Of a stretch of DNA of 64,000 nucleotides, positions 17,997 to 64,000 are shown one piece after another. Below the pieces are notes generated by a model. That model was given only the letters and a program-made list of their open reading frames with translations, was not told the origin of the DNA and did no database searches. The DNA comes from Octopus vulgaris (Eukaryota): NCBI GenBank assembly GCA_951406725.2, contig OX597836.1, positions 36,890,001 through 36,954,000 on the forward strand, given 5' to 3'. A program made the translations under genes and the position numbers. The number at the start of each line of letters is the position of its first letter. Position 1 is the stretch's first letter.

Positions 17997-19244
17997 TTAC
18001 TTGCCTTTGTCATATGGTATCGAAATTGAGAGGATCAACCATTCTAAATGAAATTGTTCATTGTGGTCTTTTAAATCCCAAATCAGTTTGCTGAGACCGG
18101 TACTATTCCGTTTATTTCTATCCCTAAATGTTGAGTAATGGATAGAAATTCTTTTAGATAACTCTAACGATGTGCTTCCAATGTAAAATCGTACTTTATT
18201 ACGAGTACTGATTATACACTGGTATATAGAATTTTTAATCTTAGAGTTACTTGAGATAAATTTAATTCTATTGGAATTGACTTCAGATACAATAACCTTG
18301 TTATTAATATTTCTAGAGGGTTGGATTGTATTAGCTAAATTAATGTTAGTATTACTAAATGTATTAATATTTAACAGTTTGTTATTATGAGAAGATATAA
18401 TTTGCAAGAGAGTGTTTGTGTTTGAAAAACCTATCCTAACCTTATGTGAATTAATTATAGAGTAATATCTAGAATTGTTTGGAAAATTCCTAGCAATAGC
18501 TTGACGAAACAGCAGTGGGAGATTAGATTTAATTTGTCTCCCGTAAGGAATTATTGACCAAATATTTTTACTAGTATTCATAGCGTAATTACTTTTGAAG
18601 GTGTTATATTTACTTTTAGATCGGTAATAGGGGAATAAATAAGGGTTATCTGCCTTCATTCGCTTTGTATCGGTGCGTAAGTTATGTTTGTTATCAATAA
18701 TTCTTTTACGACTAGAAATCTTATCTACATTATTGAATTTACAATTAGACTGAGCAGAAACAATGTAGAAAATTTTTTCTGTATAACCTGCTTTGATTAA
18801 GGTAGAGTTATAGAATTCAGCGTTATTATTGAAAATATCAACATTAGCAGATAATTTAGATAATCTAAATGAAATATTCTTAACTAAATTCTTAGTAATT
18901 GCTCCAGGATGATTACTAAATTTGCTAATGTACTTAAGATTGGTCAACGGTTTATGATATGGGAAGTAAGAGTCACTGTGTAAATTAAGCGTAATATCTA
19001 AAAAGTTGGTCTTCGTCAGATCGTCATCAAAAACGATTTTTAAGCCCATTCTACTGAAAAAATTAACTAAACTATTGTTAACTTTTTGTACCTTTTGGTT
19101 GGAAACATTTTGGAGGTAAAGTAAACAATCATCACGATTTAGACCTTCATAAATGTTAGGGAACTCTTCAGCCATTTCAAAAAGAATATATATACAGACC
19201 AAATCAGCTATCTGTGCTGAATCAGAACTTCCCAAAGGCCACAA
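17997..19244 (-). pseudogene. Penelope reverse transcriptase C-terminal part + GIY-YIG endonuclease (truncated, premature stop)
   Basis: GLNRDDCL (YxDD-like), NFLDITL, YHKP, SNHP thumb motifs; SIYQC...FYIGST...KRISIH GIY-YIG; TAA at 17997-17999 is AAA (19306-19308) in the inverted copy, which reads on as KFCLLCNSE...CKH. Confidence 0.9.
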
Positions 19245-19637
19245 TGAACAATTTCATTTAGAATGGTTGATCCTCTCAATTTCGATACCATATGACAAAG
19301 GCAAGAAATTCTGTCTTCTCTGCAATTCTGAGCTATTTTTCGTTATTTTTTCTAAAAATACTCTAGTAAACACGGTTATAGAACGAGCATACAGATGTAA
19401 GCATTGGCAGAAACATACTTTTAGTGCATATAAGTAGTCTCTATCATTATATATAGTTTAAACTTTAATTTCCTTTATATTTAACATTCACTATTAATAT
19501 CCCTACTCTTTCTGTTAGCTACTTATGACGTTATATCATATAACGTTTTTTTAAACAATATTAATAACGTTCTGTCTATCGCTATACGAATCCATCATTT
19601 TTTGCTAAAATGTCGTATTGACGAGTTTCGTTTTTTC

Positions 19638-31860: not shown

Positions 31861-32492
31861 CATACATATATATATGTGTGTGTGTGTGTGTAAGTGTATG
31901 TGTGCGTGTGTGTACACACACGTGTCTACACTCACAGACAGACAAATATATGTACGAACAGATGTATAAATAAATGGGTGTGAGTGTGTGTGTGTTTATG
32001 TGTTCATATATATATATATATATATATATGTTAGGTGTATACACATACATATATATACATAGTGATTATGGCAGCACACAAGGAGACAGTCCAGAAAAAT
32101 TGCAGGAAATTCCGAAGTCGACTAGAGTTTTTTTAAGCCAATGGTGATTTTATTGTATACATTTACTCTTTAGTATTTCAAAATATTTTTATGTAATTTT
32201 GGCAAATATATGGTAAAATAAGATGTGAGTGTTATTTTCATTTTTGTGTAATTTACACGACAATGTGCTCATGGAGAGTCAAAAGTCGTCTGCTGCTAGA
32301 GTCAAAGATGCGGAAATGTGTCGAATCATATGTACAGCCGTTTCCTCATCTTTTTATTCTGACTAAGGTTTTTTCACAAAAAATTTTAAGTATATTTATA
32401 ACACACGCTGTTGTCTATATAATTTCCACAAATATGTATTTTAAAACGTTTTAGCAGCGATGTATACTAATGTGCCGCACAAGAAAAATAAG

Positions 32493-32887
32493 TAATTAAA
32501 AATATTGAATTTCTAAATGTCTCAAAGAGACATGGGCGGTGGTGGAGCGAGAGAGTGGTTGTATACTGTCAACATAACGTGACAGTCCCGTACGGGAATT
32601 ACACCACCGCTGTTTAGCCCTAGGAAGCATCGACACTTCCTGTCGGCTTTGACACATTTCCTGTGTCCTTATATTTGCGAAGGGGAGGCAAGCACCCCCC
32701 ACCAGCTAGGATTCACACCTGAGATCATGCATGTTTCTGGGTCTTACCCGTCATCAGTCCAGGATAGTGAAACCTGCAAGTTGAGATGCCTGTCTAGCCT
32801 TCGCAAATATATATATTTACAGTGAAATATATTCACTGGTCACCGTAATTAGAAATATTGAATTTCTAAATGTCTCAAAGAGACATG
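32493..32887 (-). mobile_element. Retrozyme-like HHR element: 353-nt unit + 42-nt terminal redundancy, 11-bp TSD
   Basis: Direct repeats 32493-32534 / 32846-32887 (1 mismatch); TSD AGAAAAATAAG 32482-32492 / 32888-32898; HHR core on minus strand. Confidence 0.75.
32708..32775 (-). ncRNA. Type I hammerhead ribozyme motif
   Basis: CCTGGA-CTGATGA(32757-32751)-cGGGT-AAG-ACCCa-GAAA(32737-32734)-CATGCATG-ATC^TCAGG; stem I extends via TTCAC/GTGAA. Confidence 0.7.
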
Positions 32888-33074
32888 AGAAAAATAAGGT
32901 TTATCATTTTTCAATGGGAGGTGAAAGGGAATGTGAGGTCAATAATATTAATATTAATATTAATAAATCCACCACGCAAGCGAAGCTTTTTTGTTGGCAG
33001 CAAATGAAATAATGTCAACATTTCTTCGAAATTTGCCAAAAATTATCAATAAAATTATCGAAAATTATCAATAA

Positions 33075-33356
33075 TATTCCACAGCTCTTTATCATCCTCC
33101 CTAAATGCCTGAGAGACTTACATGGTGTGGATGTGGGTTTCTTTAAAACTAAACTGGATCTCTTCTTGTCGGGGGTCCCAGATGAACCTACCTCACGACA
33201 AGAGACACAGATGCGGGCAGCAGCATCGAACTCCCTCGTTGATCAAGTGCCACGTATCAGAGGTGAATTCACATACTGGTGTAACTCTTTCAGCGGTGGT
33301 GCCCCAGCATGGCCGCGGCCTTCGGGCTAAAACATTTTTAAGGATTTAAGGATTTA
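33075..33356 (+). pseudogene. CR1-clade LINE 3' end
   Basis: PQLFIILPKCLRDLHGVDVGFFKTKLDLFLSGVPDEP...RAAASNSL; 3' stem-loop and (TAAGGATT)n-like tail. Confidence 0.8.
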
Positions 33357-62024: not shown

Positions 62025-63338
62025 TGTTTCTTTATTAGCCACACAGGGCTGCACACAGATAGAACAAATTACAAGGTAGAGCTTTTCTTTTGAAGGTTTA
62101 AAAAAAAAAAAAAAAAAAAAAAAAGGAAGGGGGAGTTTCGATCAAAAGGGATCGTAAAAGGAGAGAAAGAGGACAAAAAAAAGGGGGGTTAAAAAAAAAA
62201 GGGGGAGAGGAAAAAAAAAAAAAAAATTGATCAATAGGGATCGTTATCACAGAAATGTCAATATGAAGTGTAAAGGGGAGGACAGGTGAGGTTTACCCGT
62301 GGAAAGAAAAGCCTACGGAAAAGACCACGGTAACCTCGGTCAATGAAGTCACATTTTATATTTCTTTTTTTTTTTTCTTTTTTTTGCAAATAAGCAACTC
62401 TCTGTTTTCGATTTCTGGGTTCATAGGACTATGCTCAAGGTGGCTTCGTCATTCATACGTGCCATTCTTGCTACATTCACCCATCTTTTTTTAAAACATT
62501 CGCTAGACAAAACTTGCCTCTCTACTCTCACTTTCCTTTTCAAGTGGTACTTGAAGAAGTTGATGAGAGATTGACCAGAGAGGAAAGTGTTTGTCTCCAA
62601 TCCTTTCAGACGCGTCCACCAGATACATTCTTTCGCCATAGCCACAAGGATGATGAAAATAGCTCTTCCTTCCCGTTTGAAGGAAGGAGGCGTGACAATA
62701 TTGACGATAGACTCAGCTGATAAACCGACTCGTCCCACACGTGACAGCAGTTGTTCGACATAAGCCCACAGGTCGGAAATTGTTGGGCACTGAACGAGTG
62801 CGTGCAGAACGGTTTCGTCGCTCTGACCGCATCTCGGGCAGGTCGGCCCCGTGTTTCTCGAGCCGTGTCTGTAGAGCTTATCCCGAACGGGTAGCGCTTC
62901 TCGGTAGCACTGCCAGGCCAGGGATCTCTGGAAGTTGTCCATGGGCCCTGGCCCGAAGGTCGTCCTGAACAGGCGGGTCAGGTACTCCTCGTCGACGTCC
63001 AGGTTCGCCCCGAGCTCGTCGTCGTACTTCCCCTCCACTAAACCCCTATAGAATGCTTTGGTTGTGTTGAAGTCACTTAAGGTCGACCCAGGACGGCAGA
63101 GTTGCTTGAGAGCAACGCGACACTCGCGGTGCCATTCGCCCTTCCTCGGCCTCTTTTTGATCCACGACTGCAGTTCGGTCATGGAGACGAGCTGCGGGAA
63201 AGCGTGCCTCACAAACGGCGACCACACCTGTTCACCGTCGTCTACATAGAGCCAGAGATGCCGCAGTCTCAGCGCGTGTCTGCGCATCATCAACCACGGC
63301 ATGCCCAGCCCTCCTTTTAACGGGTGTTGACAGCAAAA
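62025..63338 (-). mobile_element. 5'-truncated Tx1/L1-clade LINE in (GATA/GATG)n
   Basis: Uninterrupted ORF2 C-terminus plus 3' UTR ending AATAAAGAAACA; microsatellite on both sides. Confidence 0.9.
62421..63338 (-). CDS. LINE ORF2 C-terminal part (post-RT GGLG motif, zf-RVT CCHC finger); 5'-truncated
   Basis: KGGLGMP; [16 protein letters not shown]; [19 protein letters not shown]; ECIWWTR; no stops over about 305 codons. Confidence 0.85.
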
Positions 63339-64000
63339 GATAGATAGATAGATAGATGGATAGATAGATGGATAGATAGATGGATGGATGGATGGATGGA
63401 TGGATGGATGGATGGATGGATTGATAGATAGATAGATACATAGATACATAGATAGATAGATAGATAGATAGATAGACAGATAGATAGATAGATAGATAGA
63501 TAGATCGACAGATAGATAACCAAGTAATTCAGACGGTATTAAGATATTGAATAGGCTGTATTTTAAACCAGATTAGTAATAATAATTAGTCCAGACTGGT
63601 ATATAGAGATACAGACAGAGATTAATAGAAAAATAGGCTGAGAGCCATAAGAAATATTATAATCCTATTTAAACGATGGCGCATTTAAATCTAAGAAGAT
63701 ATATTCATGCAGTGAGACAAAGTGATAAACGGACAGAAAATATAGAGAGATTTTAGTGCTGATTTATGATGTGAATTAAACATCAAAAGTAATTAGGTGT
63801 ATAATTATACTGTGACGACAAATTATAGTGATTGTATACAATAATTTCGGCAAGCAGGTGAGATAACACCAGGTATGTTTCAATCCTTTGAGATCTCAAA
63901 AGTAAAACAGTGGGCTATATATTATTTCATGATTTATTTTTTTTACTTGTTTCTCTCACTAAACTGCGGCCATGCTAGAGTACCGTCTTCAAGACCTCGC

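Follow-up and report, generated by a model that had tools for sequence, protein, structure and literature searches.

A dispersed family of hammerhead retrozymes in Octopus vulgaris whose insertion junctions bear the signature of Penelope-like retrotransposons

The class of metazoan non-LTR retrozymes was defined by Cervera and de la Pena (2020, PMC7229834), with sizes of 350-390 nt in mussel and 331/353 nt in axolotl, and Penelope-like retrotransposons (PLEs) were named there as candidates for their mobilization. A preprint of 2026 (bioRxiv 10.64898/2026.07.22.740005) describes retrozymes as non-autonomous PLE derivatives, based on co-occurrence and on pLTR homology in vertebrates. The integration of animal retrozymes has thus far been a matter of hypothesis. 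The insertions of PLEs themselves have been characterized by 5' truncation, partial tandems, an inverted 5' copy, a tail of 30-40 bp at one end and a bias towards (TA)n (PMC8557442), and the tail has been explained as the interval between two internal starts of reverse transcription, from which both strands are extended (PMC11167929). Here we describe a family of retrozymes of Octopus vulgaris, designated family A, that provides direct junction evidence on integration. As suggested by our comparative analysis, family A is a dispersed non-coding retrozyme likely inserted by the RT/GIY-YIG protein of a PLE, most likely of Neptune type, and probably from circular RNA; we assign this reading a probability of about 0.8.

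Family A resembles the metazoan retrozymes described in PMC7229834 in its non-coding unit of 350-360 nt, its type I hammerhead with a short palindromic stem III, target-site duplications (TSDs) longer than 4 bp, a highly paired predicted circle and co-occurring PLEs, and a weak base of stem II is common to family A (C·A) and axolotl Amex2 (U·U). Unlike those retrozymes, it is found in the loci examined mostly as dispersed copies of 0.3-2.1 turns and not as tandem arrays, and it shows fixed ends (sites A and B) and inverted arms, the words 'inverted' and 'tail' having no occurrence in the main text of that paper; circles and cleavage were demonstrated there and are predicted for family A. With the 2026 preprint our analysis shares the class of partner concluded and monomers dispersed over chromosomes, and it differs in that no pLTR homology was found for family A in the PLE-type loci searched and that the evidence comes from junction anatomy ('tail' does not occur in the preprint either, and both main texts are silent on tails and inverted copies). 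The EN+ PLEs, as described for Poseidon PAc (PMC11167929) and for Neptune and Naiad (PMC8557442), share with family A two internal starts, a tail at one end, an inverted 5' copy, partial tandems, AT/(TA)n targets and a type I hammerhead; unlike them, family A lacks an ORF, its tail is 57 nt long compared to 30-40, and its hammerhead is canonical rather than minimal. Family A is a new dispersed family of a known class, the non-LTR retrozymes. In the literature searched, supplements, Repbase and subscription journals aside, we found no account of family A, nor one of a retrozyme that carries an ORF or of a Tx1 derivative directed to start sites.

The window analyzed is a stretch of 64,000 nt (contig OX597836.1, positions 36,890,001 to 36,954,000). 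Unit positions 1-353 are numbered along its minus strand, from 32845 to 32493, and the insert comprises the following features:

32482 to 32492 (no strand): left copy of the TSD, 11 bp, AGAAAAATAAG, an exact match to the right copy
32888 to 32898 (no strand): right copy of the TSD, AGAAAAATAAG, exact
32493 to 32887, minus strand: whole insert, 1.12 turns of the 353-nt unit of family A (unit 312 to 353, then 1 to 353)
32846 to 32887, minus strand: incomplete extra turn at the 5' end (unit 312-353), matching 32493-32534 in 41 of 42 positions
32805 to 32817, minus strand: TATA-like run (unit 29-41), by its sequence a putative internal promoter, 27-31 nt upstream of the cassette site
32765 to 32786, minus strand: unit 60-81, duplicated around an ORF1-only cassette elsewhere and empty in the window copy; putative transcription start
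32718 to 32763, minus strand: type I hammerhead with stem I 32763-58/32723-18, core 32757-51, GAAA 32737-34 and a palindromic 3-bp stem III; C·A base in stem II, family cleavage position 32724^32723, U16.1 replaced by A at 32725
32670 to 32811, minus strand: rod enclosing the ribozyme, closed by a 14-bp helix (unit 35-48/163-176), with compensatory changes
32543 to 32562, minus strand: end site A of the family (unit 284-303, most often 292-294), putative first internal RT start, unused by the window copy
32493 to 32500, minus strand: family end site B (unit ~346-353), putative second RT start and primed end of the window copy
32495 to 32551, minus strand: 57-nt 'tail' between sites A and B

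An earlier note on this DNA had read the insert as a hammerhead repeat copied from a circle by the reverse transcriptase of a LINE or a PLE. What stands of this reading is a multi-copy, TSD-flanked, target-primed element of the non-LTR retrozyme kind that was copied for more than one turn; a LINE becomes very improbable, and the circular template is probable rather than observed. The 11-bp TSD is exact on both sides, the CUGAUGA core (32757-32751) and the 14-bp helix (32670-83/32798-811) are present, and the hairpins that had been named are recovered in the MFE fold of the window unit. The period of 353 of the terminal redundancy holds, and its presumed full identity amounts to 41 of 42 positions, or to 43 nt if one base common with the TSD is counted. 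The ribozyme had been described less accurately. The AUC site with an extra A in stem III is actually a substitution of U16.1 by A, since 45 of 46 aligned monomers retain U16.1, the exception being the window copy (C17 is retained in 43). The cleavage position, given as 32723^32722, belongs after unit 122, at 32724^32723, with the family triplet GUC/GUU; the C·A at the base of stem II, regarded as a defect of this copy, is family-wide (C·A in 39 of the 46 monomers, U-A in 6); and no bulge remains in stem I, which forms a helix of 6 bp in the family register. Because the invariant U16.1 is lost in its one ribozyme, the window copy is predicted to be inactive; it is one damaged, otherwise ordinary member of the family and probably a dead end.

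The search of the genome (2.8 Gb) with the unit revealed 2165 first-look candidates, of which the best 40 were scored. The 19-nt core motif has 293 exact matches genome-wide and the 26-nt 3' motif 311, both with 0 matches for the reversed control, so the single-copy sequence that would have spoken against the earlier note is replaced by a dispersed family. From the first 100 core-motif matches (contigs C1-C6), which are dispersed, 89 insertion events were obtained by merging the matches of one insertion; a second set of 96 loci was taken from the first 100 matches of the 3' motif and represents partly the same insertions. As in other retrozymes, the copies are numerous, carry TSDs longer than 4 bp and have no LTR, PBS, PPT or fixed terminal repeat; the fixed ends of an LTR/TRIM element, which the same note had weighed, are replaced by variable 5' ends and by copies of up to 742 nt. 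The ORF for RT and GIY-YIG of an autonomous PLE is absent from the unit. Six two-ribozyme copies were found, the longest being that of 742 nt, and no long tandem array was present in 189 pattern-picked loci on contigs C1-C6. Two sister families of 360 nt exist, B (731 matches at one mismatch) and C, and the three families are 54-61% identical pairwise. Families B (L305-L329) and C (L304/L079/L165) have the same hairpin layout as A, and both host the cassette described below.

The linear MFE fold of the window unit has a z of -6.5, with 0 of 100 shuffles as good, and circular folding gave -5.6 for the sense and -5.4 for the antisense strand, two values so near to each other that the fold z cannot choose the strand. 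Rfam returned no hammerhead match in the window, even at E<=10, and just microsatellite-driven miRNA noise among the matches listed (150 of 171) for 8 loci. The evidence for the ribozyme comes from the alignment. Among the 46 aligned monomers, pairs of stem I and of the closing helix covary: 88-123 (AU 25, GC 19), 83-128 (CG 38, UA 5), 86-125 (GC 38, AU 6) and 43-168 (CG 28, UA 16). In 31 hand-picked contiguous copies 95.3% of the cells are paired, and two-sided changes affect 40 cells, compared to 14.8 in shuffled and at most 9 in slid controls, the rows being kin; the number of pairs with two-sided change lies weakly above that of shuffles (10 vs 6.9; 26/500; rows related). The core and all stem pairs are retained in 16 of 34 full monomers. 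A type I hammerhead and its closing helix are thus supported by compensatory base changes, the covariation that the earlier note had proposed as a check, and the unit of family A appears as a non-coding sequence of 353 nt, in the range of ~150-450 nt, with a conserved hammerhead core and covarying stems. The 3-bp palindromic stem III is the type described for hammerheads that act as dimers (PMC4209133).

The junctions carry the main finding. The 3' ends were taken from single-reference BLAST, because profile-HMM and multi-reference mapping over-extended into (TA)n flanks. They fall at site A (284-303) in 45 of the 89 events and at site B (337-2, mostly 346-353) in 34, with 9 elsewhere and 1 unresolved; the 96 loci of the second set gave 54, 32 and 10, respectively. 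The two sites lie ~57 nt apart. Circular permutation, as anticipated earlier, therefore holds for the variable 5' ends and for copying beyond one turn, and free permutation does not, the 3' ends being confined to two sites (79/89; 86/96). An inverted 5' arm is present in 39 of the 89 events, and where both ends of the insertion could be classified (32) they are at opposite sites in 30, with P=7e-8 under the assumption of independence; the second set, with 37 inverted loci, shows opposite sites in 27 of 30 classifiable. Non-simple TSDs flank 25 of the 89 events (10-15 bp in 18; those of 7-8 bp may be due to chance), 28 events lie within simple repeats, and no TSD was found in 36. A TA-rich 3' flank occurs in 23 events, counted without genome background. 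More than one turn was copied in 28 of the 89, with a maximum of 2.1 turns. Among the 59 uninverted copies none has its 5' end at the cleavage site (119-127), which 43 of them cross, position 60 is crossed by 33, and no sharp peak of 5' ends is visible at either place.

Two fixed 3' end sites point to the internal initiation of PLEs rather than to a LINE. Family A bears the PLE mechanism in its junctions and was likely copied by a Penelope-like retrotransposon, since they display the two-start-site 'tail' signature and match the descriptions of PLEs: two internal starts with a tail at one end of inverted copies, 5' truncation, partial tandems and a bias towards AT/(TA)n targets. Mobilization in the manner of a SINE by an APE-type LINE (L1/Tx1/RTE), through ordinary 3'-end priming and twin-priming inversions, would account for some of these observations, as TSDs of 10-15 bp, 5' truncation and inversion are LINE traits too, and Tx1-like LINEs are present in the genome. 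However, the copies have no poly(A) or repeat tail, they end at two fixed internal sites, and their inverted arms begin not at a breakpoint but at these two sites, overlapping the direct arm; the opposite-end rule already largely refutes the LINE, which we consider very improbable.

A young PLE family of this genome, encoding a protein of 1312 aa, is a good candidate for the partner of family A, and the best one. It carries a CX4CxxC motif before GIY-YIG, a trait of Neptune/Nematis (PMC8557442), and would be of Neptune type by this motif rather than by a tree; Pfam gave no match for the protein. Its pLTR contains a hammerhead-like motif, its ends lie ~57 nt apart (50-60 in individual copies) and are opposite in 7 of 7 inverted loci, and AATATTT stands at tail position 45-51, compared to 46-52 in family A. 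The tails of two further PLE families measure ~38 and ~30 nt (counted by eye). Counting against the match of 57 nt, family B, which has the two-end pattern too, shows a spacing of ~46-51 nt. BLAST and profile search in 81 PLE-type loci found no pLTR homology to the family-A unit, just neighbouring retrozyme copies being matched, and the pLTRs of the 781-aa, L126-type, window and 1312-aa PLEs likewise had none. Hence family A is not a recognizable derivative of an autonomous pLTR among the PLE families sampled, and its assignment to a partner is one of geometry. With an intact young candidate enzyme and two mapped starts, trans-mobilization and the choice between circle and linear template become testable in vitro with a 353-nt RNA. 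The 1312-aa family (L292-L303) is very young, with many identical intact copies, a long low-complexity Asn-rich insert and a CUGAUGC hammerhead-like core. In another young PLE, of 781 aa (L121-L124), an additional ORF of ~350 aa lies upstream, the tail measures 38 nt, and a pattern search found no hammerhead.

In the cycle that we propose, a copy of more than two turns would be transcribed from the internal TATA near unit 30-60, and two hammerheads, as the conserved core and the covariation suggest, would cut at 122^123 to yield a 353-nt monomer that would then be ligated. As the junctions show, copying starts internally at A or B on an AT-rich target, often on both DNA strands with one site each; it leaves inverted 5' arms, TSDs of 10-15 bp and a tail at one end, and it continues past the ribozyme and the putative start for as much as 2.1 turns. 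The window copy is one of these products, begun at B and ended after 395 nt. Passage of the RT over the ribozyme site for up to 2.1 turns fits a circle or an uncleaved multimer, and since copying continues over the cleavage site and over the putative start alike, the templates were continuous there. With an internal promoter, linear copying alone would lose one turn per cycle and would need circles or template jumps.

We lean towards a circular template. In a rather unlikely alternative, the same PLE machinery would copy linear uncleaved templates, the extra turns would come from template jumps of the RT or from rare genomic dimers, as in the partial tandems of PLEs, and circles would be absent or a by-product. 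Unprocessed RNA is described as the main substrate of anole Poseidon, with cleavage dispensable in vitro (PMC11167929). Within family A, the turns of three of the six two-ribozyme copies (L009, L191, L208) differ by 14-19% at unit 60-122 and by 4-8% elsewhere, so some templates were mixed, which is impossible from a single monomer circle; four of the longest copies have their start at 63-84, where that of linear dimer transcripts would be expected; and in 16 intact monomers the circular MFE is lower than the energy of the active ribozyme fold, by 2.7-4.8 kcal/mol in 14. Linear templates are, however, at odds with a core and stems conserved with compensatory changes, with 5' ends that pile up neither at 123 nor sharply at 60, and with divergence that is lower within insertions (7.1% between redundant turns, 321/4509 sites; 6.5% between inverted and direct arms, 455/7011) than between them (11.4%), as determined for the 89 events and 28 best-match loci, one a duplicate. 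Nor was a 353-spaced same-strand pair found among the first 100 core matches, so arrays are scarce as sources. Contigs of runs presumed to be RNA cover the unit and not the flanks of the window locus, as any copy within a host transcript would do. In contigs of three presumed-RNA runs the flank of locus L093 is joined to the unit, possibly as part of a host transcript.

Several family-A matches continued into a common sequence of ~1.7 kb, the cassette. Out of 25 cassette loci examined, 16 lie in family A at unit 60-81, a stretch that is duplicated around the cassette, 4 at the corresponding place of family B and 5 elsewhere, one with a TSD of 21 nt; the duplications measure 14-21 nt. Among the 89 events the cassette or its 3' end is located at unit 59-71 in 8 and at ~280 in 2. 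A cassette-type 3' end is joined to the unit elsewhere in L204, L251 and L367, twice at ~280 and once at 172. The cassette encodes one ORF of ~445-460 aa with a CCHC knuckle (Pfam E 0.001-0.003, below the cut-off), and no RT match was obtained in the ORF of composite or cassette. Its dN/dS is mostly 0.05-0.2 over the first 250 codons of 17 unbroken natural ORFs and higher in two copies. The protein is 28-29% identical to the ORF1 of a Tx1-like LINE, which stands before an APE-RT ORF2, and to that of a second ORF1-only cassette, and a large protein search gave no homolog at E<=1e-3. Atlas look-alikes are CCHC/ZCCHC3-like, with a recognition score below the reliable level, PDB sequence matches are confined to the zinc knuckle region, and the single-sequence fold was useless (pLDDT 39). 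The cassette is thus a Tx1-type, HAL1-like element under purifying selection, with ORF1 alone, a relation to LINEs and its own TSD. HAL1 is an ORF1-only derivative of L1 (PMC5753468), and target-specific Tx1/SINEU elements provide a precedent for insertion into another transposon (PMC4494074). With these the cassette shares a lone ORF1-like CCHC protein, duplications of 14-21 nt and nesting in a mobile element; it differs from them in its hosts, which have no sequence in common but for the most part a TATA-like box 24-31 nt upstream, and in the re-mobilization of the composite by the PLE route.

Cassette relatives are abundant, with 13,824 candidates, the best 147 of which were scored; cassettes form arrays, one of which precedes an autonomous Tx1-like LINE (L256). 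A TATA-like hexamer is found 24-31 nt upstream in 12 of 15 cassette junctions, 36 nt upstream in one and not in two, a count for which three junctions were placed by eye and the motif set was widened post hoc, with no background. In the family L137-L181 and L255-L259 the cassettes lie ~25-30 nt downstream of the TATA-like box in hosts unrelated to one another. At the 5' junction of the L150 cassette, with no snRNA locus upstream, ~25 nt precede the cassette; we take these to resemble the 5' end of U1 snRNA, with no Rfam match among those listed.

In the composites L008, L118/L141 and L158, inverted arms that begin at A or B extend over the unit and on into the cassette, and in L059 the copy breaks off 44 nt inside the cassette, with an unrelated flank upstream; composite RNA therefore took the PLE route of copying. 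Hammerheads flank the ORF on both sides in L144 and L159, and in each of these loci one of the pair is mutated. The use of A/B ends by 14 of 16 composites and the purifying selection on the ORF could also be expected if the 2.05-kb ORF-bearing form were the master and the 353-nt units were recurrent deletion products across a direct repeat of ~20 nt. This is improbable given that the cassette also resides in families B and C, at TATA promoters, before LINE ORF1s and in its own arrays, that on the cassette tree (48 rows, labelled by hand) no fewer than 8 changes are required for the family-A label, and that the junctions differ between composites. With the cassette as a passenger of the retrozyme, the findings may be joined into one reading, which we offer as speculative and, taken as a whole, unlikely. 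A Tx1-derived ORF1-only element would target start sites of RNA polymerase II and land at the internal start of the retrozyme, just 5' of its hammerhead; two ribozymes would release a protein-coding circular RNA of ~2.05 kb; a Neptune PLE would copy it; and the strict A/B pairing would stem from a single RT dimer that primes the two DNA strands from two registers of the RNA. If this were true, a retrozyme would repeatedly have gained a protein-coding gene in a three-layer parasite, a genomic model for viroid-like circles gaining the gene of an RNA-binding protein. The cassette itself suggests a LINE derivative targeted to start sites and a route from non-coding to coding ribozyme circles.

The window contains further traces of mobile elements. 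A PLE fragment at 17997-19253 (minus strand) comprises an RT C-terminus and a GIY-YIG-like motif, both recognized by eye, and a 536-bp inverted repeat; Pfam gave no match for it. The segment at ~33080-33340 (plus strand) is presumably related to the 3' end of a CR1/L2-type LINE, which it resembles, and 62421-63572 (minus strand) represents the C-terminal part of a Tx1/L1-type ORF2 (zf-RVT, E 5e-8).
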